A stretch of 64,000 bases of DNA from Candidatus Aenigmatarchaeota archaeon. Its GTDB lineage: Archaea; Aenigmatarchaeota; Aenigmatarchaeia; GW2011-AR5. The notes beneath the pieces were generated by a model, which was given only the letters and a program-made list of their open reading frames with translations, was not told the origin of the DNA and did no database searches. The position numbers were made by a program, and so were the translations under genes. This document shows, piece by piece, positions 3,565 to 61,561 of the stretch; the first letter of the stretch is position 1; every line of letters starts with the position of its first letter. The DNA lies in contig JACPDL010000003.1 of NCBI GenBank assembly GCA_016184005.1, positions 171,632 to 235,631 on the forward strand. The letters are read 5' to 3'.

Positions 3565-3969
3565 CTATTCTACTATGACTCCGCCGGCCTGCTCTATCTT
3601 TTCTTTGGCCTTCTTTGAACAGCTGGGAATTCTCACTTTGACGGCAACGTTGATGGAACCTTTTGAAAGAAGTTTCTGGTAACCCATTGAAGACAGGTCA
3701 ATAACTTCCGCATGTTCCTGCACTGAAAGAATCTTTTCCACGTCACCGACATTGATTATTTTCATGGATTTCTTGTTGTGCCTTACAAAACCTTTGTATC
3801 CGTAGTGCTCCGGCTCGTAGTTTACAATATACGAATACTTGTGCTTGTGCGAGCCGCCGTAACCGCGCCCGCCCTTGCTGCCTTTTCCGCGGTGTTTCTT
3901 CTTCGAGCCCCAGCCGTGGGTATGCGTACCTCTCTGTCTTGTATCCTTTTTCCTGAAGCGTAGTGTCAT
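3565..3969 (-). CDS. rpl15: 50S ribosomal protein L15 (uL15)
   Basis: Gly/Lys/Arg-rich N-terminus (GSKGGRGYGGSHKHK), position before SecY. Confidence 0.8.
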   Translation of the reverse strand: MTLRFRKKDTRQRGTHTHGWGSKKKHRGKGSKGGRGYGGSHKHKYSYIVNYEPEHYGYKGFVRHNKKSMKIINVGDVEKILSVQEHAEVIDLSSMGYQKLLSKGSINVAVKVRIPSCSKKAKEKIEQAGGVIVE

Positions 3970-4337
3970 TCTTTAACCCTCATCTTTGCATATCTCTTCC
4001 ATTCCATGAGCCTCAGGCCGCCGTTATATCGCTCCTCCAGCAGTCTTGCTGTCGCTTCCGGCATCTTCAGGTCCTTCCGGCCCAGGCCGCCCTTTGCGCC
4101 TTTCTTCCTTGCAAACCTGTATACCTCTCTCGGATTCAGGGCAGAAAAATGATGGGTTCTTTCATCAACAAAAGATTCAGTCGGTTTCTTCTCGTATCTC
4201 AGGACGAGTTTCTCATGACCGTTCATGTCAACAAAGACAGTCCTTTTTTCATCTGCTCGTGTTTCCGTGGTGAAATAACCGAGAAAGCCAAAATCACTGG
4301 CAGGCTTCAGGAAAACCTTGTACTCGGGCATTTTCAC
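3966..4337 (-). CDS. Hypothetical 123-aa protein inserted between L30 and L15
   Basis: ORF overlapping neighbours by 4 bp on both sides (translational coupling); no family recognised. Confidence 0.4.
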   Translation of the reverse strand: MKMPEYKVFLKPASDFGFLGYFTTETRADEKRTVFVDMNGHEKLVLRYEKKPTESFVDERTHHFSALNPREVYRFARKKGAKGGLGRKDLKMPEATARLLEERYNGGLRLMEWKRYAKMRVKE

Positions 4338-4669
4338 AGCATCCTCTTTATGAGATCATTTATGTTGTTTCCGCGATAACCGAGATCGCCTTTTGGCCAG
4401 CGTTTCTTCAGTGTCTTGAACCCGCCCCTTGGCGGAGCAAGCCGGTACACGTTGCCTTTACCTTTTTCTTTCAGCATCTCAAGCAGATCCCCGCTTGCTT
4501 CTCCCCACGTAACGTAGTCTTCTGATTTCTTTATCATGCCCACAATTTCCGATGATTTTGGCACGAGTGCGAGCGCGTGTTTCGTATGCAGGCCAAGCAT
4601 GCGCATCGTGCGCTCTACGTCTTCCCTTACGCCAATCCTTCCACGCACGCGCAAAACAGCCAATTCCAT
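4334..4669 (-). CDS. rpl30: 50S ribosomal protein L30 (uL30)
   Basis: LAVLRVRGRIGV...TMRMLGL motif of uL30; follows S5. Confidence 0.8.
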   Translation of the reverse strand: MELAVLRVRGRIGVREDVERTMRMLGLHTKHALALVPKSSEIVGMIKKSEDYVTWGEASGDLLEMLKEKGKGNVYRLAPPRGGFKTLKKRWPKGDLGYRGNNINDLIKRML

Positions 4670-22141: not shown

Positions 22142-22223
22142 GTAAATACACCTTTATCATCTTACAGGGAAAAAGAATTAAAAGCTGAACCAGTAATGCC
22201 CCTGTAATTCAAATGTAATGATA

Positions 22224-23855
22224 CTACTTCACTTCTATTCCAAAGTCACGAAGCATTCTATCATGTAGCGGGAGAAGTTTTCCGTCGCCATGTAAACCCA
22301 TACATAATAGTAATCCCACTTCCTCAGGATCGTCAGTAGCCGGTTGAAATTCCCAGCCATGTTTCGTTGATAGCCGAGCCAAGTCAGATGAACTCTCTCT
22401 TTCTATTTCTACAAGGCCGAGCTTTGCATTTTTAGGCAGCGCAAGGTTTCTTGATTTAGTCTTTTCTCTTCTCCCCGTTATGATGATCTCTGGTTTCTCC
22501 GGTGGCTTGTATAAACTTGCATATTCTTTCAAAGTACGAGAAGGATCAGCTGCAAAACGTTCTTTAAAGAAATCAAACATGTAGAAAGTAATATGTTCCC
22601 ATAGATAAGGTAAATCTTCCTTATATTTCCTCTTTGGCGAAAATCCATGCGATTTAAGGAATTTCAAGCCTCTTAAATGTAAGCTTGCGATATCGAGATC
22701 CTTCATAAACTGTTCGCCAAATTGCATTTCCATTAATGAATAAAGTATTGAAAGCCTTGTATCATGACCAAAACTTTCCATTTTTTGATCGGCTGATCCT
22801 GGCACGGCCTTATATGCAGCTTCAAGAAATTTTATTTCCTCTTCAACTAGAAGCCTTGCCTGTTGTTCATTTACAGGCGAATGTCCATAAGTTAAAGGCG
22901 GTTTAAGATCTTCTAGAAGCTGAACCGCTAATTTCACGTCAGCCAAACGTTTAGCCGTATTAAACATGTCGTATAAACCGTACATTCCTGAAAGTTCTGT
23001 GACTCTTGTCCAGGCATTTACATCTGTTAATGATTTACCCAGTACGTTTTCATATACTTCTACGCTAGTGTATGGTATTATATAGGAAATTTCAGGTTCA
23101 TTTCCAAATGATTTTGCGACAACAGAATCTATTATCCCATCCAACCCGCCTTTAGGTTGAAGCAATTTTTTGAAACTCCAAGCTAGAAGTCTGTGACCAG
23201 TTCTTTGGTAGTGTTCTACAAATCTTTCTGCATCTGCTTTACTAAGCCTAACTCTAGCATGAGTTGGTTTCAAAGCTTCTGAGATTGTCCTGTATCTTTC
23301 AAAATAGTAACCAGCGAGAGAAAGACTCCAACCGCTTCTTTGGAACTTTGCATCTGCATGATGTTCCTGTCCATCTATTTCTCTTCCCGCCTCAGTTCCT
23401 TTTCTATATTTTTTTGACTCAGTTCTTGGTTTTATTTCTGGATTGAAAGTATTGGCTCTTATCCTTACAACACCAGATCCCAATCCGTTAAGACTTCTCT
23501 CGCCTTTTATACCATCCGTATCCCAATAAACCTGAAAAGTCACTTGTCCGGGAGGTTTAGTTTGATTTAGATAATCAAATGTTCCTTTTAGAAGGGCATG
23601 AGGATCCTCTACTTTTCTGACTGCTTCGACTGTCATATTGTAGGCTGCAATATCTCTTTCATGATCAGATCTTCGAGTATCATATGTAATATCCAATTCT
23701 CTCAAATAAATGTCGCTTGCAGGATGCAGTCTAGTTGAAAATTCTTTTTCCATTTCCCTAATAGTGTTCCAACGATCGCCGTTACTATGTCTAAGCAACA
23801 CCGGATCAGAATCTATTCTAGCCATAATTTCTTGTCGAAGATGCGAAATTCCCAT
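22224..23855 (-). CDS. Hypothetical 543-aa protein
   Basis: Long intact ORF with protein-like composition; no family recognised. Confidence 0.5.
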   Translation of the reverse strand: MGISHLRQEIMARIDSDPVLLRHSNGDRWNTIREMEKEFSTRLHPASDIYLRELDITYDTRRSDHERDIAAYNMTVEAVRKVEDPHALLKGTFDYLNQTKPPGQVTFQVYWDTDGIKGERSLNGLGSGVVRIRANTFNPEIKPRTESKKYRKGTEAGREIDGQEHHADAKFQRSGWSLSLAGYYFERYRTISEALKPTHARVRLSKADAERFVEHYQRTGHRLLAWSFKKLLQPKGGLDGIIDSVVAKSFGNEPEISYIIPYTSVEVYENVLGKSLTDVNAWTRVTELSGMYGLYDMFNTAKRLADVKLAVQLLEDLKPPLTYGHSPVNEQQARLLVEEEIKFLEAAYKAVPGSADQKMESFGHDTRLSILYSLMEMQFGEQFMKDLDIASLHLRGLKFLKSHGFSPKRKYKEDLPYLWEHITFYMFDFFKERFAADPSRTLKEYASLYKPPEKPEIIITGRREKTKSRNLALPKNAKLGLVEIERESSSDLARLSTKHGWEFQPATDDPEEVGLLLCMGLHGDGKLLPLHDRMLRDFGIEVK

Positions 23856-23906
23856 ATACAGCCTAATGAGTAAAGACTTAAAAAGCTGTCATGAAAATGA
23901 TGTTTC

Positions 23907-24098
23907 ATGGAATGCCCTGTTTGCGAATCGCGTTTGAAGCACGAGAAGATAGAGGAAGTCTGGGTTGACATATGCCAAGAACACGGCGTGTGGCTTGACA
24001 AAGGCGAGCTTGACAGGATAATGGAATCATCCAAATACAGGGGCCAATCAGAGGGCCTTGTGCGCGGCTTGTGGTCCCACACCCACTCGCAGTTCTGA
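23907..24098 (+). CDS. Small zinc-ribbon protein (zf-TFIIB-like: CPVC...CQEHGVWLDKGELD)
   Basis: C-P-x-C ... C-x2-H-G-x-W-L-D-x-G-E-L pattern typical of the TFIIB-type zinc-ribbon family. Confidence 0.5.
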   Translation: MECPVCESRLKHEKIEEVWVDICQEHGVWLDKGELDRIMESSKYRGQSEGLVRGLWSHTHSQF

Positions 24099-24144
24099 GT
24101 CAGGCGCTGGATTTTTTTATTAATTAGACTTAACACAATAGTGT

Positions 24145-25848
24145 ATGGCTAAATGGCTGAATAGAAAACTACTATTTGCCCTAACTATTGTTGTTTTGCT
24201 TATTTCTGTAGTTCTTGTTATTTCTTCGCAAAATGAAACAGAACTTCCTGCAGAAAAAGCTTATGTGACCGTCAAAGCGGACAAAACAGTAAAGTCACTG
24301 AATAAACAAATTTTCGGAACTGCGATGCCTGGTGAAGGAAGAGGAAATCGCAGCGCATTCACGGACGCACCACTCAAAGAATACATGAATGAATTGCAGA
24401 ACGGGTTCATGACATTACAAGGCACATCAGCAGGCTTTCCTTTCTACCCGGAAATGACAGGTGAACATTCCAAACGCATGACAATAGCGCAGATACTTGA
24501 CAGAATGAAATTCAGGGATGATCCTGACGGGGCTGTGATTTATGAAACAGTCAAAGATGAACCGGCACTGAACAAACCAATGGACCATAACTATGATGAT
24601 ATTCTTCAGTATCTAGAGTCACTCAAAGCCAAACCAAAAATTGCTATCCGAGTTCCTACATACTTCACCGGCCTTGGAGATTCTATTGTAGCGAAGATGA
24701 AGCTCAAATTAGATCCCAAAACTGGCTCGGATCTTGTTCACTATCTCAACGATCCGCCTGTCACTGAGCTGGGAAGACTGCGAGCGCGAAATGGCCACCC
24801 AGAGCCTTACAACGTAAAGTATTTTGTGCTCGGCAACGAGATGTGGAACAACTATGTAATTTATGGCCTAAGTTTAGAAGACATGGCTGCACAACATATC
24901 GCTTTCGCAACCGCCATGAAAGCTGCAGACCCTACGGTTAAGATTGGATTCAGCTTTGCAGATGATGGATATCCCCATGAATTCTTCAAGCCTGAATTCC
25001 TGCAAAGGGTTGAAAAACAGCTTGATTTCAACGATCGCATGCTCTCACTGATAAACGGATATTTCGATTTCGGGACATATCATGTATATTCTGACGGCTG
25101 GATTGCTACAGAAGGTAAAGAAGTATTAGATTTGGGTCCTCAGGATTGGAAGTTCTTGATGGGCCAGGCATATATGAAGGAGAAATACGGGAGCTATCAA
25201 AGGCACAGAGAAATAGTTCAAAGGTATAATCCGAGTGCTGAGGTAATAAACGACGAATACAGCGGCCCGCTTGCCGATCTTGGTGGGGCATTATTTGCAG
25301 CTGATCATGTAATGTATCTGATCAGAACAAACTATGACAGCTATGCAGGCTATTGGGACAGCGGATTATTCGAGCCACTCTCATTTTTTGGCATGATCCA
25401 TATTCCGGACGAGAAGTCGCCTGATTACTTTAAGCGGCCTGCTTTTTACGCGCTTAAAATGTTCAATTATTATACTGGAGATTTTATAGTTGAATCTATT
25501 GTAAAATCTCCAACATACCATATTGATCAATTTGCATCCCAAAATCTTATTTGGCCTGCAGAAGATGTGCCAAGCGTTGCTGTAATGGCAACAAAGAAAG
25601 ACAACAAGCTTTACATAATGCTGCTCAACAGGGAGACGAATCGCGACATGGAAGTAGAAATCACGCTGGAAAGCTTTGTTCCTAAAGGAAGTGCAAAAAT
25701 CTATACACTAACTGGACAAAATATGAACTCAAACAATGAAAATAATCATAACAATGTTGTAATTCAAGAATCCTCAATTCAAACTTCCACTCTAGTCAAA
25801 ATACTCCTGAAAAAGCATTCGCTTGTCGCTATAGTGCTAGAGCAGTAA
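24145..25848 (+). CDS. Membrane-anchored putative glycoside hydrolase (TIM-barrel, clan GH-A-like)
   Basis: N-terminal TM anchor; VLGNEMWN (G-N-E acid/base-type motif). Family not resolved. Confidence 0.45.
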   Translation: MAKWLNRKLLFALTIVVLLISVVLVISSQNETELPAEKAYVTVKADKTVKSLNKQIFGTAMPGEGRGNRSAFTDAPLKEYMNELQNGFMTLQGTSAGFPFYPEMTGEHSKRMTIAQILDRMKFRDDPDGAVIYETVKDEPALNKPMDHNYDDILQYLESLKAKPKIAIRVPTYFTGLGDSIVAKMKLKLDPKTGSDLVHYLNDPPVTELGRLRARNGHPEPYNVKYFVLGNEMWNNYVIYGLSLEDMAAQHIAFATAMKAADPTVKIGFSFADDGYPHEFFKPEFLQRVEKQLDFNDRMLSLINGYFDFGTYHVYSDGWIATEGKEVLDLGPQDWKFLMGQAYMKEKYGSYQRHREIVQRYNPSAEVINDEYSGPLADLGGALFAADHVMYLIRTNYDSYAGYWDSGLFEPLSFFGMIHIPDEKSPDYFKRPAFYALKMFNYYTGDFIVESIVKSPTYHIDQFASQNLIWPAEDVPSVAVMATKKDNKLYIMLLNRETNRDMEVEITLESFVPKGSAKIYTLTGQNMNSNNENNHNNVVIQESSIQTSTLVKILLKKHSLVAIVLEQ

Positions 25849-25879
25849 TCATGGGCTGATCAGATTTGGACTTAATGCT

Positions 25880-25991
25880 TGCTCATTCGGGTGCTCCAAC
25901 CAGGCTAAGCTACCAGCCCGGGCAGACCGAAGTTTCGAAGAAACTTCAATCTCCTATGGGCTGGATCAGATTTGAACTGATGGCCTCCCGA
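25880..25991 (-). tRNA. Candidate circularly permuted tRNA gene: 3' half (25957-25991) encoded upstream of 5' half (25880-25919), separated by a 37-nt hairpin spacer
   Basis: Minus-strand 5' half GGGCTGG-TA-GCTTAGCCTGGTTGGAGC-A-CCCGA-ATGAGCA; 3' half TCGGG-AGGCC-ATCAGTTCAAATCTGAT-CCAGCCC-A. Perfect 7-bp acceptor and 5-bp anticodon stems, canonical D- and T-arms, 75 nt in total. Anticodon GAG or GAU depending on the junction. Confidence 0.45.
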
Positions 25992-26043
25992 TTATCAGTT
26001 TCACCAACAAGCAAGTATTTCTAATAATCATATGCGCAGAGCA

Positions 26044-26051
26044 TTTATAGG
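26044..26051 (-). promoter_or_regulatory. TATA-like box (minus strand CTATAAAT) ~50 nt upstream of the permuted tRNA 3' half
   Basis: AT-rich octamer resembling the archaeal TATA consensus; overlaps the 3' end of the NAD kinase gene. Confidence 0.3.
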
Positions 26052-26061
26052 CTAAATATCT

Positions 26062-26922
26062 TTATCGCAAGAATTCGTTCCTGTATTTTTCGTAAAAGTT
26101 CTTATGAACGAGATGCACGACCTTGAGCGGCGGGCCTTTCTCTATAATGAATTTTGTGTTCTCCCTGACATAATCGCCCCCGTGGCCGTCTATTATGAGG
26201 GCGCACTCGCCTTCACGAACAAGCACTTCTATCTTCTTGCTTGAAGGCACAACCTTCGGCTTGATTCTCGAGAAGAAAGGGTTCAGGGCCACTATGCTCA
26301 TGGCATCTATATCGGGATCAATTACAGGACCGCCTACCGACGCATTGTAAGCTGTGGAGCCTGTAGGCGTGGAAACCAGCAACCCGTCGCCTGAAAAGTC
26401 CATTATTGTGCCGTCTATATTAAATTCCATTTTCAGTATTTTTGACGGCCTCTTCCTCCCGAAAACTATCTCGTTAAAAGCAGGGGGATAAGGCTTGTGC
26501 AGTATTTTGTGGAAGATGCTTCTGGTTTCTTTGTAGCACTGCAGCCGCATCTTCTCGACTATCTGATAATCTCCCCTGAGCAGGCGCTGCAGGTTTTCTG
26601 TCAGTTCTTTGAAAGTGCAGGTGCAGAGGAACCCATGGCCTTCTATCTTGACCGGCAGAATAGGCAGGTGTGTCTGGTGCGCTGTCCAGAGCAATGTGCC
26701 GTCCCCGCCAACAGTTATTACAAGGTCACCGTCAAATCTTCTTACGGACAAGCCGCGCTGCCTCAAGCGAAGAGCAGTTGACCTGTCAAAATGTATTGAC
26801 TGCACGTGCGGCTTCAGCATTCTTTCCAGCTTTCTGGCCATGCGTATGCCGGCCTTGTTCTGCTTCGCAATTATCAGCACGTCATTCAATGCCGGCTTTG
26901 CCTTCCTCTTTTTTTTAGCCAT
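26062..26922 (-). CDS. nadK: NAD kinase
   Basis: GGDGT motif (VITVGGDGTLLWTA) and NAD-kinase C-terminal domain. Confidence 0.8.
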   Translation of the reverse strand: MAKKKRKAKPALNDVLIIAKQNKAGIRMARKLERMLKPHVQSIHFDRSTALRLRQRGLSVRRFDGDLVITVGGDGTLLWTAHQTHLPILPVKIEGHGFLCTCTFKELTENLQRLLRGDYQIVEKMRLQCYKETRSIFHKILHKPYPPAFNEIVFGRKRPSKILKMEFNIDGTIMDFSGDGLLVSTPTGSTAYNASVGGPVIDPDIDAMSIVALNPFFSRIKPKVVPSSKKIEVLVREGECALIIDGHGGDYVRENTKFIIEKGPPLKVVHLVHKNFYEKYRNEFLR

Positions 26923-26971
26923 GTAAGGGCTAATGTCTGCTGGAAGCTTTTAATAGAAATTTGCAAACAAA

Positions 26972-28174
26972 TCAGGCGAGAGACCGGCACTTTCCAGGAC
27001 CTCGGTAAGGTATTTCATGGGCCGCATAAAATTCTTCTGATGTCTTGTAGCCAAGCGACTTGATTCTGGAATATATGCAAGGACGGGTTATACCGAGTTT
27101 TACTGCAGCGGCAGTCATATTTCCATCAGCCGCTTTAAGCGCCTCAGCCACTGCTTTCTCCGGTCGTTTGGTTCGGGATCTTTCTATCCCATAGGCTCTG
27201 CGAAAGTCTTCAGGAGACGGATAACCTAATTTCGTGATATTATATCTCAGTTGCCTGTCGCTTAACCGGAGGTCGCGTGCGGCGGCAGTCATGTTTCCTC
27301 TGCTTGCTCTAAGCGCCTCAGCTATAAGCTGTCCGCTGAATGCCCGCATCGCGGATGCGTAATCGCCGGGTTGCGCGTACACGGCTCCCGGCTGTTCTTC
27401 GCTTTTCTGTGATTTGCCCGTTTTTCCGCGCAGTATGCTGGGACAGATTTCATCGCCTTCGGACATCACGAAACCGTACAGCAGGATATTGCCGAGTTCC
27501 CTCACGTTTCCCGGAAAATCGTATTCCAGCAGCGCAGACACCGCTTCCGGCGTTAATGTTTTTCTGGCGCTGTTTTGCCTGCACAGCCGGTCCATATAAA
27601 ACCGCGCAATCGGTTCTATATCTTCCCTGCGCTCGCGGAGGGGCGGCATGCAGATCTCCAGGGCGCACAGCCTCTGGTAAAGTTCCTGCCTGAATCCGCC
27701 TTTGTCAGAAAGGTCCCTGCTGGTGGCGGATATTATCCTCACATCGGTATCAGACTGCTTGGTGCCGCCGACAGGTATGAATTCGCCGGTTTCGAGCGCC
27801 CTGAGAAATTTCGGCTGCACATCCATCGGAAGCTCGCCTATTTCATCAAGAAAGAGGGTGCCGCCGTCTGCGCTTTTTAGAACACCCGTGTTGCGGCGAT
27901 ACGCCCCCGTGAACGAGCCCTTTTCATGCCCGAAAAGAATTGACTCTGCAAGTTCGCGCGGTATGCTTGCGCAATCCAGCGGATAGAATAAGGCGGAACT
28001 GCGCCCTGAATTGCGGTGAAGCTGGCGTGCCACAAGCTCTTTTCCGGTCCCTGTTTCGCCTGTTATGAGGACAGGATAATCATAAGCCGCAAACTTCTTT
28101 ATTTTCTGCCGCACGCCTTCTATTTGTACGGACGTTCCTACTATTTCGCATTGTGGATTAAGGCCGCGCATCAT
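26972..28174 (-). CDS. Sigma-54-interaction-domain AAA+ transcriptional activator (bacterial enhancer-binding-protein type), no receiver domain, two tandem Fis-type HTH at the C-terminus
   Basis: Walker A GETGTGKE, ESILFGHEKGSFTGA (GAFTGA-type loop), Walker B GGTLFLDEIGEL, duplicated HTH (NMTAAARDLRLSDRQLRYNITKLGY / NMTAAAVKLGITRPCIYSRIKSLGY). Confidence 0.8.
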   Translation of the reverse strand: MMRGLNPQCEIVGTSVQIEGVRQKIKKFAAYDYPVLITGETGTGKELVARQLHRNSGRSSALFYPLDCASIPRELAESILFGHEKGSFTGAYRRNTGVLKSADGGTLFLDEIGELPMDVQPKFLRALETGEFIPVGGTKQSDTDVRIISATSRDLSDKGGFRQELYQRLCALEICMPPLRERREDIEPIARFYMDRLCRQNSARKTLTPEAVSALLEYDFPGNVRELGNILLYGFVMSEGDEICPSILRGKTGKSQKSEEQPGAVYAQPGDYASAMRAFSGQLIAEALRASRGNMTAAARDLRLSDRQLRYNITKLGYPSPEDFRRAYGIERSRTKRPEKAVAEALKAADGNMTAAAVKLGITRPCIYSRIKSLGYKTSEEFYAAHEIPYRGPGKCRSLA

Positions 28175-28928: not shown

Positions 28929-29000
28929 TCAATCTATAAATCCTGCTTAATAAAGTTTCTGCACAAATTCATCAGAAAGGGCCGATAGATCAATACAGAT

Positions 29001-29090
29001 CCCTTCTTTGTAAAGAAGGTCTTTGTGCACCGAAAGCAAAGCTTTCTGGCATCTCAAAAGCCTTTCAGGCTTTTGCAGACAAACCCCAAG
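29001..29090. repeat. Family-B palindromic repeat element, inverted copy 2
   Basis: Reverse complement ttggggtttgtctgcaaaagcctgaaaggcttttgagatgccagaaagctttgc... matches 6021-6125. Confidence 0.7.
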
Positions 29091-29154
29091 AAACAGAGGA
29101 CTTCGCAAATATTAAGGGATTGTGAGAATGGAAGATCGCTTGCATGGCAAGAGG

Positions 29155-29241
29155 AGAAACTACGTATCTCCCTCTACCCTCTCCCTTCTGAAGGAAACGA
29201 GGTTAGAAGGAGAGAAACCATGGGTTTCTTCTCCTCTTATG
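29155..29241. repeat. Family-D structured repeat (gaggagaaactacgtatctccctctaccctctccctt...) flanked by a 7-bp direct repeat caagagg
   Basis: Shares ~38 bp with the inverted copy at 32999-33036; internal hairpins; 7-bp flank duplication at 29148-29154 and 29242-29248. Confidence 0.5.
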
Positions 29242-29276
29242 CAAGAGGCTTCGGGTTCGAGTCCCGATCGGTCCAT

Positions 29277-29327
29277 CATCCAATCCCTTTCTTAAAAAGA
29301 AAGGTCTTGGAGAACCCCAAAGAATAA
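29277..29327. repeat. Family-C repeat atccaatccctttcttaaaaagaaaggtcttggagaaccccaaagaataa, copy 1
   Basis: Near-identical copy at 36851-36900. Confidence 0.7.
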
Positions 29328-29397: not shown

Positions 29398-29508
29398 GGG
29401 CTCGTGGTCTAGTGGAATGACGCGACGTTCGCAAAGAGGAGAAATATGTATCTCTCTCAAAAATATTGAAATACGTCGAGGCCGGGGGTTCGAATCCCCC
29501 CGAGTCCA
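29398..29508 (+). tRNA. tRNA-Ala (anticodon CGC) with a ~39-nt intron at/near position 37/38
   Basis: Acceptor GGGCTCG/CGAGTCC with G3:U70 Ala identity pair; anticodon stem CGACG/CGTCG; loop TTCGCAA; T-arm GGGGGTTCGAATCCCCC; discriminator A; CCA not encoded. Confidence 0.8.
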
Positions 29509-29931: not shown

Positions 29932-30011
29932 AGGTCTTGGGTTAATATTCAACACTATAAAGAGACTCTCAATTTTTGAACGCTTAAATTTATACTGGAG
30001 ACTACACATTC

Positions 30012-30596
30012 ATGTTCAATCTAACGCTAGATACATCTTGTTTTTCTCTAAGAAAAGAGGAAAATTCTTTGTTGAACGAGCTTTTAGAATTACAAGCAGA
30101 TTCAAAAATATTGTTGTACTACGCACCACGAACTTTACAAGAACTTATGATGTCCATTGCAAAGAAAAAAGAATTACCGAAAGTAATTGAAATGAAGATA
30201 AAATATAGGTTTCGAGATGTGTTCAGAGATTATTTAGAAAATATGGACGAGATTGACCCAGAACTCGAATGGGAAGACGAGTTCCACGAAATAGGACTAT
30301 TTGTTACAAGAGTATGTCTCGAAATTACTGACAAAAACGTAATAGAAAAGTTAGAAGTGTCAGAAGAAAACTTACGTAGATATTTGGATAGCCAGAAGAA
30401 CCATAACAGTCATACAGATATTGATATATTCACATTTCATGTTATGAACAAAGGTAATATATTCCTGACTAAAGATGTACCGTTGTTTGTAAGTAATCAA
30501 AAAACAAGAGAAACACTGGAAAATAAATATAACACAAAAATTAGACTCCTAAATAAAGATTTTATTGAAGAATTAAAAAATATGATAGAGGCTTGA
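30012..30596 (+). CDS. Hypothetical protein, possibly a PIN-like nuclease
   Basis: N-terminal LTLDTSCF (PIN motif-I-like Asp), downstream acidic residues, C-terminal IFLTKDVPLF (PIN motif-IV-like T-x-D). Weak assignment. Confidence 0.35.
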   Translation: MFNLTLDTSCFSLRKEENSLLNELLELQADSKILLYYAPRTLQELMMSIAKKKELPKVIEMKIKYRFRDVFRDYLENMDEIDPELEWEDEFHEIGLFVTRVCLEITDKNVIEKLEVSEENLRRYLDSQKNHNSHTDIDIFTFHVMNKGNIFLTKDVPLFVSNQKTRETLENKYNTKIRLLNKDFIEELKNMIEA

Positions 30597-31777
30597 TGCT
30601 TATGGAGTCTATGAATTATAAAAGTCCAATTAAGGTCAGAAATATAGAAATAGTAAATCAGTTAAAAGAGTTCTATTCTCTCTCTTCAAATATTGATTTA
30701 CCAAAAGACATAGAAACTCAAGTAATTGACATTGCCGTCAAGAAGATTGATCAAGATAAAAAAGTTGTAGAAAAAAGATTATTGGGATTAAATAAAGAAG
30801 ATGAATTTGTACTGACTTCTCTTCTGTTAGGAAATGCCCTTCAAGTTACAAGGCTTTCACAACAAAAGATTACACAAGATTTAGATTATCAAATACCAGA
30901 TTTTTTAGTATGCACTAGGGTTCCAAAAATTGTAGATAAAGATGGGGATAAAATAAACAGGTTTTTTGTAGAAGTCAAAAAATTATCAGAGAATGAAAGT
31001 GATTTTAAAATAACGCAGGATTATTTTAATAAACTTAAGAAATATTGCAAAACTTACTCTTTGCCACTTTACTTTGCAATTAAGTTAGAGCTTGGAGGTG
31101 TTGGTTTTTCTCAATGGGCTTTAATTTTCTCTGATACCGTAGAAAACTCTGGACAAATTAAAAAGCTAAAAATAAGAAAAGATAGCAAAGAAGAAGATTG
31201 TTATTTATTTACATTGAAAGACTTATTATCGAAAGACTTCTCAGGTTTATGGATGGACAATCATCTATTATTTTTGTCGGAGGGTTCGGTCTATAGAAAG
31301 GTTTATGATATTAATAAAGAATCCCCAATTCATATTACATCTGAAACAGGCGAAGATTTGGGAGGACTTGTAGAAGTAGAATTAAAAAACGGTAGTATTT
31401 CTGAAAAAGTAACGTTCGAAAAAGATAAACATGATGTCAGAGATATAATTTTCTATAATATTGCAATGAGAATAGCCAGAGGTAAAGAAACAATACAGAC
31501 TACAAATACGACAACTGAGAAAATTATAGAAGCTGATAAAAACTATTCAATCCCGCTTTATCATTTAGTTTTAGAAATTTACCTTCACTTACGTTCAAGA
31601 TTTGGAGAAAGCTGGAAGGAACCCAGATCAGATATAAGTTTTTACTTATCCCACTTAACAGACTTTGATTATAAAATATCTTATTTTATAAGAGATATAA
31701 TAATTAATTTACACAAGAATAATATAATTAAATTAATTAGAATGGTACCAGATTTTTTAATGGAAAATGATGACTAA
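30593..31777 (+). CDS. Hypothetical protein with a PD-(D/E)xK nuclease-like core
   Basis: IPDFLVCTRVPKIVDKDGDKINRFFVEVKK = PD ... E-V-K spacing typical of the restriction-endonuclease-like fold; start overlaps the upstream stop (ATGA). Confidence 0.45.
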   Translation: MMLMESMNYKSPIKVRNIEIVNQLKEFYSLSSNIDLPKDIETQVIDIAVKKIDQDKKVVEKRLLGLNKEDEFVLTSLLLGNALQVTRLSQQKITQDLDYQIPDFLVCTRVPKIVDKDGDKINRFFVEVKKLSENESDFKITQDYFNKLKKYCKTYSLPLYFAIKLELGGVGFSQWALIFSDTVENSGQIKKLKIRKDSKEEDCYLFTLKDLLSKDFSGLWMDNHLLFLSEGSVYRKVYDINKESPIHITSETGEDLGGLVEVELKNGSISEKVTFEKDKHDVRDIIFYNIAMRIARGKETIQTTNTTTEKIIEADKNYSIPLYHLVLEIYLHLRSRFGESWKEPRSDISFYLSHLTDFDYKISYFIRDIIINLHKNNIIKLIRMVPDFLMENDD

Positions 31778-31989
31778 TTTAATTTCTCCTTAACTTTCCC
31801 ATAAACCTTGAATGGCTTGTCAGACCTAGCATGTTTTCTCAAATAATGCAAAGAACTCTTGTTTATGCCAATTTTCTTTGCTTCTGACTGGGATAAGCTT
31901 AATATTTTTTGCCTCAACTTAAAGTCATCCTCTCTTTTCAATACTAGTGAAGGCTCTGAAAAGTCGATGCTAGGCTTCTTACCTATCAA
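31774..31989 (-). CDS. Small hypothetical ORF (71 aa) at the distal edge of the island
   Basis: Intact ORF; no family recognised. Confidence 0.2.
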   Translation of the reverse strand: MIGKKPSIDFSEPSLVLKREDDFKLRQKILSLSQSEAKKIGINKSSLHYLRKHARSDKPFKVYGKVKEKLN

Positions 31990-32135
31990 GTAATGAGCCA
32001 GTTCTTGAGCTTTAAATAAAGTGATTTTCAGTTTTCAAATCCTTATGTCCTCGAGTCCATTGAACCTCAGGTATAAGCCACGATGCTATCCAAATCTTTA
32101 ATAGTATTCTTCACTATTAATTATAGGCGAATTGT

Positions 32136-38445: not shown

Positions 38446-39273
38446 ATGAATAGAATAGTTTTTGTCGGGACGGGCGGCGGACGCCATGCTGTTTCTTCGC
38501 AGGTGCGGAAAACAGGCGGAATATTTGTAGAGCTTGACGGCCTGAAATTCATCATAGACCCGGGTCCCGGATCTCTGGTTTTTTCAAGATTCCTGGGATT
38601 AGAGCCTGAAAAATGGGACGGCATGCTCCTTTCACATTATCACATCGACCAATCAAGCGACGCAAACGCGCTGATAGACGGAATGAAGGACCCCGCACCC
38701 GTAGGTGAAGAGGCTGCAAAAGAAATATTCCTGATTGCAGAAGAACACTGCGTCAACATGAAAAAAGACCATGACGAATATCCAAGAATAAGCAAATTCC
38801 ATCAAAGGCTGGTCAAGAACCTGCATGCAGCGAAGCCTGGGCAGGATATTTCCCTGGGAAAAATAAAGGTAAAAACAACCGGAACGGAACACGGCGTGCC
38901 GAACGTGGGCTTTGTGATTTCAGGATCGCTAAGAATAGGCTATCCTTCTGACGGGATATATTATTCAGGGCAGGAAAAAAAATTTGATAACTGCGACATA
39001 CTAATCTTGAATGTCCCTATCCCTAAAGGCGGCGAATCGAAGCACAAGGTTTACATGAGCGTGGACGACGCAATAAAGCTTGTGAAAAGCATAAACAGCA
39101 AGCCCAGAATTGTAATTCTGACTCATTTCACCCCGTGGATGCTGCGCTCTAACCTGTTCAAGCAGGCAAAAATAATGCAGGATGCAACCGGCGTCAAAAC
39201 GATCTTTGCGCAAGACTTCATGGAAATGGACATGAAAAACTTCCAGACAAAAGTATTGCAATTGAAACTCTAA
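38446..39273 (+). CDS. Metallo-beta-lactamase-fold hydrolase
   Basis: LLSHYHIDQSSD (HxHxD-type motif) plus downstream His/Asp ligands. Confidence 0.65.
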   Translation: MNRIVFVGTGGGRHAVSSQVRKTGGIFVELDGLKFIIDPGPGSLVFSRFLGLEPEKWDGMLLSHYHIDQSSDANALIDGMKDPAPVGEEAAKEIFLIAEEHCVNMKKDHDEYPRISKFHQRLVKNLHAAKPGQDISLGKIKVKTTGTEHGVPNVGFVISGSLRIGYPSDGIYYSGQEKKFDNCDILILNVPIPKGGESKHKVYMSVDDAIKLVKSINSKPRIVILTHFTPWMLRSNLFKQAKIMQDATGVKTIFAQDFMEMDMKNFQTKVLQLKL

Positions 39274-42599: not shown

Positions 42600-45227
42600 A
42601 TGGAAACGGAAGAGAAGATAAAATCAAAATTCAGGCTGAAGAAGCTTGTGAACATGCTGCAGGCGATCAAAGGCAGGCATACAGAGCTTGTAACGGTCTA
42701 TGTGCCCGTGAACTACTTGCTCAGCGAGATTATCAGCCAGCTCCGGACAGAACAAAGCACCGCGGAGAACATAAAATCAAAACCAGTAAGGAAGAACGTG
42801 ACAACGGCACTGGAGAAGATAATCAGGCACCTGCAGCTCTACAAACACACGCCGCAGAACGGCATTGCGCTTTTCTGCGGCAACGTGAGCGATAAAGAAG
42901 GCGCGACGAATATAGAGATCTGGGCAGTAGAGCCGCCCGAAGAGATAAAGGTCAAGATGTACTGGTGCGACCAGAGGTTCGTAATGGATCCCCTGCTCGA
43001 CATGGTAGAAGAGAAAGAGATATACGGTGTCATCTGCCTTGACAAGAGCGAAGCAGACATCGCTTTGCTGAAAGGCAAGAAGCTTGAACTGCTTTACCGC
43101 AAGGAATCCATAGTCCCTGGTAAAACGCGCGCCGGGGGACAATGCCTGGCACCGGATACCCTCATACAGATGGGTGATGGAACTTTATTGGAAATATGTA
43201 AAGTCAGCAATCCCCATATAGTCAAATCTGTAAATTTCCCAGAAACAACCCTGAGCAACAGGCCGGTAATAAACAAATGGGAAACAAAAAAGAATACAAA
43301 ATACATAATAACAACCAAATGTCCTGCCACACAAATCGAATCTTCAAAAGATCACCTATTCTTCAGGTGGGGAAACAGTATAGAAGAGATTCCGGCAGAA
43401 AAGCTGAAGAATGGCGACTTTCTATTGCTGCCTGAAAAAATAGATGTAGAAGGCGAAATACAAAGTTTGAATAGCTCAGGCTTTTACAATTCATACAGGA
43501 TAAGTGAAAAAGGAAGAGAATATATTAAAAACAGAAGAATTTCATTAAAATTATTGCAGAAAGAATTGGCCAAAAAATCAGGTGTAACACAGACAGCAAT
43601 ATCAGTGATAGAGCTTGGAAAAAGGGATATAAAAATTGGATTTCTGAAAGTCTTGTGCAAACATCTTGGTACAGAAACAGGCTCTTTCATACGCCAGTTC
43701 TGCGTGCCAGTCAAAGATCTTAAACTGCCTGAAGTTCTGAACGAAAATCTGGCAAGTTTTCTAGGCTACTTTGCCGGAGACGGCTCTATAGAGAATGAAA
43801 GATTGTCGCTATTTGATGCTGACAAGCAGACGATTGAATATTACAACAACTTGGCAGAAATCACATTCAACTGCAACTCGAAAATCACGCATAGAGAAAA
43901 CAAGGGACATTATGTTGCCAGAATATATGGCAAACCTATTGTAAAACTGATAAAAAATGAATTTCCGGAACTAAAATACGCACTGGATACTGAAATGCCG
44001 GCTAAAATACTCAAATCACCTGATAGCGTACTTGCTGCATTCTTGAGGGGGTTTTTTGATGCCGAAGGCTACGTAAACAGGGAAAGGGGGATAGGTCTGG
44101 GGATAAATAACAAAAAAATGGCCAGGCAAACGCAGCTGGCTTTGCTCAGATTCGGGATATTAGCATCGCTTGCAGAATACGACAACAGGAGAAATCCTCA
44201 CAGCAAAAAACACAGGTTTACGGTAGGAATAACAGAAAGAACGTCACTAGAAATATTTCTGAACTCAATAGGATTTAATGCGGCTTATAAAAACAAAAAG
44301 CTGGCAGAAGTCATCCAAAATAAGTCAGTAACAAGCTATACAAGACAAATATTTCTGACGGGAGAAAATATAAGAAAAATACTTGAGTCAGAAGGCTACA
44401 AGGTGTCGGACTTTCCAAAAGTTACCAATTTCTTCAGAAATGAAAGGCTGATGAGTAAAGACGTATTCAGAAATTCCATAATAAATGAGGTTAGAAACAA
44501 CGAAAGCCTGAGGAAAAAACTCGAAATAGTATTAAATTATAACCTAGTACCTGCAAAAATAAGCTCCATAAAGAAAATAGAAGAGGAAAACAGGTTCGTT
44601 GATATAGAAGTTAAGAATTCCAATTTCATTGCAAACGGTATTGTAGTCCACAATAGTTCAGCACGTTTCTCACGCGTGCGCGAGGGCATGCTCAACGACT
44701 GGCTGAAAGAAGTGGGCGAAGCCGCGAACAAGATCTTTGAGGAGCACAAAGAGGTCAAGGGCATACTTCTGGGAGGGCCTGGACCAATAAAGGAATTCTT
44801 TCTGAAGGAAGAGTACGTTCATGCAGACGTGAGGAGCAAAATACTTGGAACTGTTGATACGGGCTATACAGGAGAACATGGACTTGAAGAAACACTGATA
44901 CGGGGGGAAGATTTGATAAAAGAACTGGCAGTCACGAAAGAAAAGAATCTTCTGCAGAAATTTCTCACAGAGCTTCAGAAACCGCATGGAATTGCAGTTT
45001 ACGGCGCCAAGGAAGTGATACGCGTGCTTGAGCTGGGCGCGGCAGAAACTATAATCATAAGCGAGAGCATCAGCGAAAAAATAGAAGGGGAAGACGCCAT
45101 AGAATATTTCGAGGAGAAAGCGCAAAACTACGGCACCGCGCTTATTGTTGTTTCATCAGACACGCGCGAAGGCCAGCAGTTTAAAGCCCTAGGCGGCATC
45201 GGGGCGCTGTTGAGGTATCATGTGTAG
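42600..45227 (+). CDS. prf1: Peptide chain release factor aRF1, interrupted by a 504-aa intein
   Basis: NIKS motif, GGQ motif, aRF1 domain 3 after the intein; exteins total 371 aa. Confidence 0.8.
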   Translation: METEEKIKSKFRLKKLVNMLQAIKGRHTELVTVYVPVNYLLSEIISQLRTEQSTAENIKSKPVRKNVTTALEKIIRHLQLYKHTPQNGIALFCGNVSDKEGATNIEIWAVEPPEEIKVKMYWCDQRFVMDPLLDMVEEKEIYGVICLDKSEADIALLKGKKLELLYRKESIVPGKTRAGGQCLAPDTLIQMGDGTLLEICKVSNPHIVKSVNFPETTLSNRPVINKWETKKNTKYIITTKCPATQIESSKDHLFFRWGNSIEEIPAEKLKNGDFLLLPEKIDVEGEIQSLNSSGFYNSYRISEKGREYIKNRRISLKLLQKELAKKSGVTQTAISVIELGKRDIKIGFLKVLCKHLGTETGSFIRQFCVPVKDLKLPEVLNENLASFLGYFAGDGSIENERLSLFDADKQTIEYYNNLAEITFNCNSKITHRENKGHYVARIYGKPIVKLIKNEFPELKYALDTEMPAKILKSPDSVLAAFLRGFFDAEGYVNRERGIGLGINNKKMARQTQLALLRFGILASLAEYDNRRNPHSKKHRFTVGITERTSLEIFLNSIGFNAAYKNKKLAEVIQNKSVTSYTRQIFLTGENIRKILESEGYKVSDFPKVTNFFRNERLMSKDVFRNSIINEVRNNESLRKKLEIVLNYNLVPAKISSIKKIEEENRFVDIEVKNSNFIANGIVVHNSSARFSRVREGMLNDWLKEVGEAANKIFEEHKEVKGILLGGPGPIKEFFLKEEYVHADVRSKILGTVDTGYTGEHGLEETLIRGEDLIKELAVTKEKNLLQKFLTELQKPHGIAVYGAKEVIRVLELGAAETIIISESISEKIEGEDAIEYFEEKAQNYGTALIVVSSDTREGQQFKALGGIGALLRYHV
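43143..44654 (+). mobile_element. Intein with LAGLIDADG homing-endonuclease domain inserted between Q and S of ...RAGGQ|SSARF...
   Basis: Begins with Cys (CLAPDT), ends with HN followed by Ser; LAGLIDADG blocks LGYFAGDGSI and LRGFFDAEGYV; embedded HTH. Confidence 0.75.
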
Positions 45228-61376: not shown

Positions 61377-61561
61377 GCCGAGGTAGTTCAGCGGTAGAAC
61401 GCCACGCTCATAAAGGCTTTTCTTTTAAAAAAGAAAACCCTGGAAAAGAAACAGAAATAAAAATTGGAAAGAAAACTTTCAAGAATTATGAGCTTTGAGA
61501 TGCTTTGCATCAGTGATAATGAGAAACGTGGAGGTCGTGAGTTCGAACCTCATCCTCGGCA
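61377..61561 (+). tRNA. tRNA-Met (anticodon CAT, elongator-type) with a ~113-nt intron (61414-61526)
   Basis: Acceptor GCCGAGG/CCTCGGC; D-arm GTTC-AGCGGTA-GAAC; anticodon stem CCACG/CGTGG; loop CTCATAA; T-arm GTGAG-TTCGAAC-CTCAT; discriminator A. Confidence 0.7.

Follow-up and report, generated by a model that had tools for sequence, protein, structure and literature searches.

A very probable circularly permuted tRNA-Ile(GAU) gene, with its predicted junction in the anticodon stem, in an Aenigmarchaeota archaeon

We analysed a 64-kb stretch of contig JACPDL010000003.1 (hereafter the window) from an Aenigmarchaeota archaeon, a member of the DPANN group, in which a reading of the bare letters, the original prediction, had proposed a circularly permuted tRNA gene. 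The locus lies on the minus strand of the window, within a 213-nt gap separating two convergent genes that encode an NAD kinase and a glycoside-hydrolase-like protein. All NAD kinase homologues with a named source come from Aenigmarchaeota/Aenigmatarchaeota, and the other genes of the window form a chromosomal archaeal region (SecY, ribosomal proteins, ValRS, an intein-bearing eRF1, RFC and FtsZ). Reading 25600-26300 on the minus strand recovered in place every string on which the prediction had been built, including the 3' half TCGGG...CCAGCCCA (in full TCGGGAGGCCATCAGTTCAAATCTGATCCAGCCCA, 25957-25991), the 5' half GGGCTGG...CCCGA(ATGAGCA) (in full GGGCTGGTAGCTTAGCCTGGTTGGAGCACCCGA(ATGAGCA), 25880-25919) and the 37-nt hairpin spacer between them. 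The 3' portion of the tRNA thus comes before the 5' portion, both on one strand and divided by a short intervening sequence, which is the arrangement of a permuted gene, and we conclude that this is very probably a functional circularly permuted tRNA-Ile(GAU) gene (Table 1).

The 3' exon consists of A31, the anticodon loop CTGATAA (anticodon GAU), the stem strand TCGGG, the variable loop AGGCC, the T-arm ATCAG-TTCAAAT-CTGAT, the acceptor strand CCAGCCC and the discriminator A, and CCA is not encoded. When the two halves were joined through the loop CTGATAA, which directly precedes TCGGG, ARAGORN called a 75-nt tRNA-Ile(GAU) with a 7-bp acceptor stem and a 5-bp anticodon stem, as had been predicted, and with a canonical T-arm and a regular cloverleaf. 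Features of this isoacceptor are all present (a 7-nt loop with U33 and A37, A73, and a short, class I variable loop of 5 nt). The 5' part, taken with the A at 25887, was identical to the contiguous tRNA-Ile(GAU) gene of the relative L023 (33/33) and the 3' part nearly so (37/42, differences mostly in the T-stem), a match that by sequence is far above chance. In an alignment of the spliced products of permuted loci with normal relatives, 99.5% of cells were paired in the cloverleaf, 6 pairs were changed on both sides, and 0 of 500 shuffles reached the cloverleaf fit. The ARAGORN call, the L023 match and the covarying pairing all agree with a canonical cloverleaf.

Standard tools do not see the gene in its genomic order. 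ARAGORN returned 0 tRNAs on the whole window and Rfam had no match at E<=10 over 25500-26400; the only tRNAs that Rfam reported in the window were two intron-bearing genes, Ala-CGC (29398-29508) and Met-CAU (61377-61561). Among the relatives considered below, Rfam called the tRNA-Ile genes of L023, L006, L009, L010, L013 and L016 and none of the permuted loci. No other tRNA-Ile was found in the window with ARAGORN, Rfam or further searching.

The original prediction had offered two anticodons, GAG if the halves join at 37/38 or GAU if they join earlier in the loop. GAU (Ile) with the loop CTGATAA stands, and neither junction does: the sequence comparison places it at 30/31, in the anticodon stem and not in the loop, because cuts after the second nucleotide of each bulge described below (CG/A and AA/A) give ...CCCG+ACTGATAA..., the exact L023 sequence. 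This is the sole choice of cut that restores the anticodon stem, and it agrees with the description of the helix of 37/38 introns, whose central helix is formed by positions 32-35 (PMC4090602). The predicted spliced junction accordingly reads ...GCACCCG joined to ACTGATAATCGGG; a junction at 31/32 would give the same product, as A is present on both sides. Junction 37/38 was rejected, since the GAG reading would put C at position 37 in a tRNA without the long variable arm of Leu tRNAs, has no supporting helix, and is also ruled out by CTGATAA preceding the 3' stem in every lineage.

We then assessed the sequences flanking the exons. In minimum free energy (MFE) folds of the whole precursor, leader and trailer formed the same motif in the window and in the permuted loci L014, L012 and L019, with an outer leader-trailer helix (h'), a small 5' bulge, a central 4-bp helix (H), an AAA bulge and 2 pairs (CU/AG) in that order. 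The exon strand of helix H is CACC (25890-25893), and C29 and G30 (25888-25889) lie in the 5' bulge. The whole window precursor folded at -59.8 kcal/mol (z = -4.8), and the duplex energy of the leader against the exon tail plus trailer was below that of shuffled leaders (z -2.8 to -4.4). In all permuted loci the leader ends ...G[G/A]TG-AAA before CTGATAA and the 5' part ends CA[C/T]C-CG-A before the trailer, and the AAA bulge is invariant, both in these loci and in the two normal-order genes with an intron at 30/31 (L016, L017).

Pairing was conserved while its sequence changed. The window and L014 combine H CACC/GGTG with an h' of 10 bp including two G.U pairs (AATGAGCAAG/CTTGCTTGTT), and L005 has the same H with the leader TGCTCATT, all Watson-Crick over 6 pairs up to the contig end; across this group the outer helix is AATGAGCA/TGCTYRTT, and the window differs from L005 at two positions, where a G-C and an A-U pair have become G.U. 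L012 has H CATC/GATG, changed on both sides, with h' AATTTGTG/CACAATTT and one mismatch, and L019 has H CACC/GGTG with h' TGGGTGAGC/GCTCACCCA. Helix H is therefore CACC/GGTG in two lineages and compensated to CATC/GATG in the third, and the outer helix differs in sequence in each. With a 4-bp helix, an AAA bulge, an outer helix of 8-10 bp and compensatory changes in three lineages, the motif is of the bulge-helix-bulge (BHB) or BHB-like kind. The fold that the original prediction expected between leader and trailer is present in this BHB-like form with covariation, but not as the strict motif, hBHBh', of two 3-nt bulges around 4 bp with helices on both sides (PMC3978253, PMC4090602). No permuted locus shows the latter, and no strict 3-4-3 motif was seen in other registers, by hand or in MFE folds.

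Table 1 Features of the permuted tRNA-Ile(GAU) locus and its flanking genes (coordinates of the window)
Feature	Position	Strand	Details
NAD kinase gene	26062-26922	minus	same strand as tRNA
TATA-like box CTATAAAT, within GATATTTAGCCTATAAATG (26042-26060)	26043-26050	minus	putative; ~27 nt upstream of leader helix strand
Leader strand of outer helix h', CTTGCTTGTT	26006-26015	minus	pairs with trailer AATGAGCAAG (MFE folds and pair table)
Leader strand of central 4-bp helix H, GGTG	26002-26005	minus	pairs with tRNA positions 25-28 (CACC)
3-nt bulge AAA with predicted 3' splice site AA/A	25999-26001	minus	cut after second A; third A is tRNA position 31
3' exon	25957-25999	minus	tRNA positions 31-73
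Spacer between A73 and G1	25920-25956	minus	37 nt
5' exon	25888-25919	minus	tRNA positions 1-30; acceptor GGGCTGG, D-arm, CCCG of anticodon stem
Trailer strand of outer helix h', AATGAGCAAG	25878-25887	minus	predicted 5' splice site CG/A directly before trailer
Decayed tRNA 3'-end relic, GCATT-AAGTCCAAATCTGAT-CAGCCCA	25852-25878	minus	broken T-stem, T-loop TCC for TTC; outside functional gene
T5 run	25810-25814	minus	possible archaeal transcription stop (role inferred); ~65 nt after 5' exon; kept in L006 flank
Glycoside-hydrolase-like gene	24145-25848	plus	

To find further copies, genome collections were scanned with the 21-nt 5' end and metagenomes with the leader/loop junction. The locus was identical in four independent Logan assemblies and is therefore not an assembly artefact, and the permuted gene was assembled independently in more than 10 metagenomes. 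These copies fell into three diverged lineages from separate projects (the window with L001-L005, L014 and L020; L012; and L019 with L026-L029), which rules out both an assembly artefact and a recent accident. The 37-nt spacer recurs in L005, L014 and L020, which are closely related to the window. L012, a bin with a CTP synthase that clusters with Aenigmarchaeota, carries the gene in a different gene context with the 5-nt spacer CTCAC; placing it relative to the window failed, as the two have no gene in common and no homologue of its CTP synthase exceeds 67% identity. In L019 the spacer is 8 nt (TTTCAAAT), and an identical gene recurs in four ENA assemblies (L026-L029). Ribosomal protein L3 of this lineage is only 58% identical to that of the window, so that the two are deeply diverged. 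Exons are 90-97% identical across the three lineages, and leader, trailer and spacer have strongly diverged. The comparison thus shows permuted genes in three diverged lineages and normal-order genes in other relatives. Three metagenome hits (L015, L018, L021) were discarded as chance matches, and viral contigs scanned for the junction gave no match.

These comparisons make it improbable that the locus is non-functional debris of rearranged tRNA-Ile fragments, with a working tRNA-Ile(GAU) elsewhere in the genome. A decayed tRNA 3' end does adjoin it, the region is plastic (a MazEF insertion in L006, a 3.7-kb deletion in L014) and the search covered the window and partial genomes; but three diverged lineages share this order and junction and have kept their cloverleaf pairing intact, compensatory changes affect helix H, the outer helix and the T-stem while flanks and spacers diverged, and debris would not keep a splice motif.

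Features of the spacer and putative promoter also bear on whether the halves are expressed together. The spacer of the window centres on the hairpin GAAGTTT-CTTCG-AAACTTC (core 25929-25947), and in the MFE fold all of it forms a stem of ~15 bp. Among the close relatives L005, L014 and L020, 4 of 4 spacer substitutions keep pairing via G.U (GCCC to GTCC or GTTC; CGAAAC to CGGAAC). Comparison across lineages indicates that the hairpin is dispensable, because the spacers of L019 and L012 are 8 and 5 nt. By motif inspection, each permuted lineage has a TATA-like box 25-35 nt upstream of the leader helix, that of L012 being TAGCTATAAAA, very similar to the box of the window and of the RGC(C)TATAAA type like it, and that of L019 being TTTTAAGATA at a matching distance from the leader. 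In relatives, the TATA boxes of normal-order tRNA-Ile genes precede the 5' end by 25-40 nt. Inspection of the spacers found no TATA-like element.

A split tRNA of the Nanoarchaeum equitans kind, with trans-splicing of halves that are transcribed separately, the second from a promoter within the spacer, would give the same end product and could draw on the length of the 37-nt spacer. We consider it very improbable: that spacer is a G+C-containing hairpin, and spacers of 5 and 8 nt are too short for a second promoter and exclude one in L012 and L019. Split tRNAs have halves at separate loci with their own promoters, and here the halves lie 5-37 nt apart with nothing promoter-like between them.

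The permuted-gene reading suggests the following pathway. Architecture, conserved pairing and identity of the product to a contiguous homologue are established by the comparisons above, and transcription, cleavage, circularisation and end processing are inferred from the published pathway of algal permuted tRNAs. A single transcript would start ~25 nt downstream of the TATA-like box and contain, in order, the leader, the 3' exon, the hairpin spacer, the 5' exon and the trailer. The two acceptor strands would pair across the spacer, and leader and trailer would form the 10-bp outer helix while the leader GGTG pairs with positions 25-28, giving a BHB-like motif in which the 4-bp helix and the AAA bulge are canonical and the 5' bulge (CG or CGA) is relaxed. 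The tRNA splicing endonuclease would then cut CG/A and AA/A, and an RtcB-type ligase would join G30 to A31 to form a circular RNA, in which ...CCAGCCCA-spacer-GGGCTGG is predicted to be continuous and leader and trailer to be absent. Finally, RNase P and tRNase Z would excise the spacer and CCA would be added, although cleavage with ligation and end processing could occur in the reverse order.

Several observations weigh against a functional permuted gene. In the window and L012 the 5' bulge has 2 nt (CG), provided that the A31-U pair forms, and in L019 this side is a 4x1 internal loop (CGAA opposite A); an endonuclease of strict specificity would not cut such a relaxed bulge, and a motif of this relaxed class therefore needs a broad-specificity enzyme. 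Only 2 bp (CU/AG) make up the inner flanking helix, D-stem pair 10-25 and two anticodon-stem pairs are in competition with helix H, and covariation support comes from three independent lineages only. Scans of ~35 window open reading frames (ORFs) with Pfam and NCBIfam revealed no EndA or RtcB. A second, normal tRNA-Ile(GAU) gene could lie elsewhere, since the genomes compared are not complete, and the transcript, circular intermediate and mature tRNA are predicted from sequence alone. In favour of a sole copy, the 21-nt 5'-end probe had a single match per genome assembly. The Pfam and NCBIfam scans also found no tRNase Z, and a metallo-beta-lactamase fold protein (38446-39273) was rejected as RNase Z (47 bits against a cut-off of 293).

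The 37/38 intron of the tRNA-Ala(CGC) gene (29398-29508, plus strand) has, by eye, a canonical 4-bp helix (TTCG/TGAA) and the 3' bulge ATA, and its 5' site lies in a loop and not in a closed 3-nt bulge. If this is another relaxed splice site of the genome, it would fit a broad-specificity endonuclease.

Normal-order tRNA-Ile genes of relatives vary in introns and setting. L023 (NAD kinase 67% identical to that of the window) has a contiguous, intron-free tRNA-Ile(GAU) gene that continues CTGATAATCGGGAGGCC like the 3' part of the window. Among relatives whose sequence extends downstream past NAD kinase, the closest is L006 (84% identical); its tRNA-Ile gene, between the NAD kinase and hydrolase-like genes, is in normal order and has a ~75-nt D-loop intron. 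A D-loop-intron gene in normal order also lies ~500 nt downstream of NAD kinase in L009, and L007 has the same gene start directly after NAD kinase, followed by the contig end. The tRNA-Ile of L010 has a 37/38 intron and that of L013 is intron-free. In L006, an inserted MazE/PemK(MazF) toxin-antitoxin pair (3905-4524) separates the NAD kinase gene from the normal-order tRNA-Ile gene and occupies the position that the leader and 3' half have in the window.

In L016 and L017 (Ga0164318_10120497, Ga0164318_10340713), from other metagenomic archaea, tRNA-Ile(GAU) is in normal order with an intron at exactly 30/31 and a strict 3-4-3 motif (bulge CGT, helix CGTC/GACG, bulge AAA). They share with the permuted genes the isoacceptor, the splice position, a helix H formed with positions 25-28, the AAA bulge and the junction ...GAAA/CTGATAATCGGG, and differ in exon order, in the strictness of the BHB and in their acceptor stem (GGGCCCG). 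Because this intron has the same bulge at the same site, the permuted gene resembles the outcome of a circular permutation at such an intron, and the published model of origin likewise proposes permutation at an intron position (PMC3978253). L017 (~840-1130, oriented) carries two introns, that at 30/31 and a long one in the T-loop, and is missed by Rfam.

Two flanking vestiges had been described and attributed to a tandem duplication at this locus. The downstream one, a decayed T-arm and acceptor copy, is real: 25852-25873 (AAGTCCAAATCTGATCAGCCCA) matches the functional copy at ~20/23 with one gap and an exact 11-mer (own count). The 5' part, trailer, relic and flank of the window are collinear with the normal gene and homologous 3' flank of L006, so that the relic represents what was once the 3' end of a normal-order gene. 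L014, L020, L012 and L019 lack it; in L014 and L020, whose amino-acid identity to the window is 90-99%, a deletion (3.7 kb in L014; window ~22150-25880) removes it together with the hydrolase-like gene and a 543-aa ORF (22224-23855), ending right after AATGAGCAAG and sparing the trailer helix strand. The sequence of the upstream vestige (GCTTGTTGGTGAAA) is present, but its resemblance to a D-arm is weak and needs gaps, and GCTTGTT-GGTG-AAA is better explained by the conserved pairing as the leader strands of the outer helix and helix H plus the 3-nt bulge. Further upstream, TTAGCCT was rejected as a D-loop relic, as it also occurs downstream of NAD kinase in L006 with no tRNA directly after it; its position fits the promoter region.

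We considered whether the layout arose in the window lineage itself, by an in-situ tandem duplication whose outer halves decayed and left the flanking copies. This published model (PMC3978253) remains alive because the relic T-arm resembles the functional T-arm of the window (CTGAT) and not that of L006 (CCGTT); the relic lies directly downstream of the 5' half and trailer, as the model predicts, and leaders in all permuted lineages start GCTCA, like the D-arm start GCTTA. We nevertheless regard such an origin here as doubtful. L006, L007 and L009 keep a normal-order gene with a D-loop intron that the 5' half of the window lacks, the lineage with L3 58% identical (L019) has a homologous leader and trailer in its permuted allele, L012 carries the gene in a different context, and comparison by eye revealed no likeness between the spacer ends and the outer flanks. 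An origin of the two halves as att-site duplicates, left by an integrative element in a nearby intact tRNA gene, can hardly be entertained: tRNA genes are common integration targets and a partial 3' copy is present, but the window holds no intact tRNA-Ile, the ~70 nt that separate the copies contain neither an integrase nor an element, and the arrangement is kept in different gene contexts.

Since the leaders of all three lineages share TGCTCA...G[G/A]TGAAA, we take this as evidence of a single origin of the permuted layout. An older permuted allele probably replaced the resident normal-order gene downstream of NAD kinase and left its 3' stub. Replacement is likelier than in-situ duplication because the layout is found in the distant L019 and is absent from the close L006, and because the 5' part of the window lacks the D-loop intron of L006, L007 and L009. 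More tentatively, the permuted gene may be the only tRNA-Ile(GAU) gene in several Aenigmarchaeota lineages, represent a fifth junction class (30/31) and have spread patchily by replacing normal-order genes. If so, gene permutation would be a condition that can be inherited and transferred, not a local accident, and a broad-specificity splicing endonuclease would be implied in this DPANN group.

Few permuted tRNA genes are known, with reports from red and green algae, a nucleomorph and the crenarchaeon Thermofilum pendens. A 2014 review counted 34, from a few algae and one crenarchaeon, with junctions at 20/21, 37/38, 50/51 and 59/60 (PMC3978253). Published archaeal cases are those of T. pendens only (iMet and Tyr, junction 59/60); the literature searched contained nothing further for Archaea since 2011 and, within its incomplete coverage, no link of permuted tRNAs to Aenigmarchaeota or DPANN. 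The present gene resembles those of T. pendens in being archaeal, with the 3' part upstream of the 5' part on one strand, a single (here putative) upstream promoter, a short intervening sequence, a BHB-type motif made from leader and trailer, and poor visibility to standard tRNA finders, which miss or under-score such genes. It differs in its junction (30/31 in the anticodon stem against 59/60 in the T-loop) and in its host (Aenigmarchaeota against Crenarchaeota, Thermoproteales); the T. pendens genes encode CCA and carry a 37/38 intron, whereas this gene has neither and is known from several diverged lineages with covariation in the splice motif.

Likenesses to the permuted genes of Cyanidioschyzon merolae and green algae (Soma et al. 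2007; PMC3978253) lie in the pathway proposed here (BHB cleavage, circular intermediate, RNase P and tRNase Z, CCA addition), in the origin model of permutation at an intron position and in CCA not being encoded; intervening sequences are 1-74 nt in algae and 5-37 nt here. The algal genes are eukaryotic nuclear genes of four junction classes, none of them 30/31, and their circular intermediate was shown experimentally, whereas the window gene is known only as sequence. The break at 30/31 and a BHB-like helix formed by the flanks are shared with the split tRNA-Lys(CUU) of Nanoarchaeum equitans and Staphylothermus (PMC3218864), one of which is also DPANN, like the window organism; in those genes each half has its own locus and promoter and joining occurs in trans, unlike the closely spaced, reversed halves in one predicted transcript here.

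The locus would thus extend permuted tRNAs to DPANN, with a new break point inside a stem, an essential isoacceptor and a relaxed splice motif. Its relatives provide a comparison series (intron-free, D-loop-intron and 30/31-intron genes, three permuted versions and the relic of a normal gene end), which makes the origin of permuted genes testable by comparison. As ARAGORN and Rfam both miss the gene, bins of this group would be scored as lacking tRNA-Ile(GAU), biasing estimates of completeness and coding capacity; incomplete tRNA sets in DPANN bins have been taken to suggest undetected disrupted genes (PMC5829648).

Other disrupted tRNA genes were also noted. In a soil metagenome (L022, ~1650-1740, minus orientation), ...GAAA/CTGATAATCGGGAGG precedes an insertion, a T-arm and an encoded CCA; there is no Rfam call and, by eye, no matching 5' half in the 360 nt read upstream, and the locus may represent a pseudogene or a further tRNA-Ile that is disrupted, split or permuted. 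Within the window, 28979-29277 (plus strand, borders approximate) is a probable hidden tRNA-Ala(GGC) with insertions of ~135 nt in the D-loop and ~85 nt at 37/38. Its acceptor 5' strand GGGCCGA (G3.U70) is at 28979, its T-arm and acceptor 3' strand are at 29251-29277, and a CTATAAAT box lies ~40 nt upstream; ARAGORN and Rfam missed it, and hand-spliced versions were called tRNA-Ala(ggc) by ARAGORN.

Composition and gene content vary elsewhere in the window. G+C falls to 0.30 in 30001-32000 compared to ~0.45 elsewhere, and two ORFs there (30012-30596, 30593-31777) have no Pfam match. At 26972-28174 (minus strand), in a stretch of raised G+C (0.505 for 26001-28000), lies a gene for a sigma-54-interaction-domain AAA+ regulator with Fis-type HTH domains (Pfam E = 1e-58). 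The regulator is cut to 191 aa in L006 and absent from L008 and L009, where a HAD hydrolase gene abuts the NAD kinase gene, a pattern that suggests a recently acquired bacterial-type gene. The eRF1 (aRF1) gene at 42600-45227 (plus strand; 875 aa in total) is interrupted by an intein with LAGLIDADG and HTH domains.

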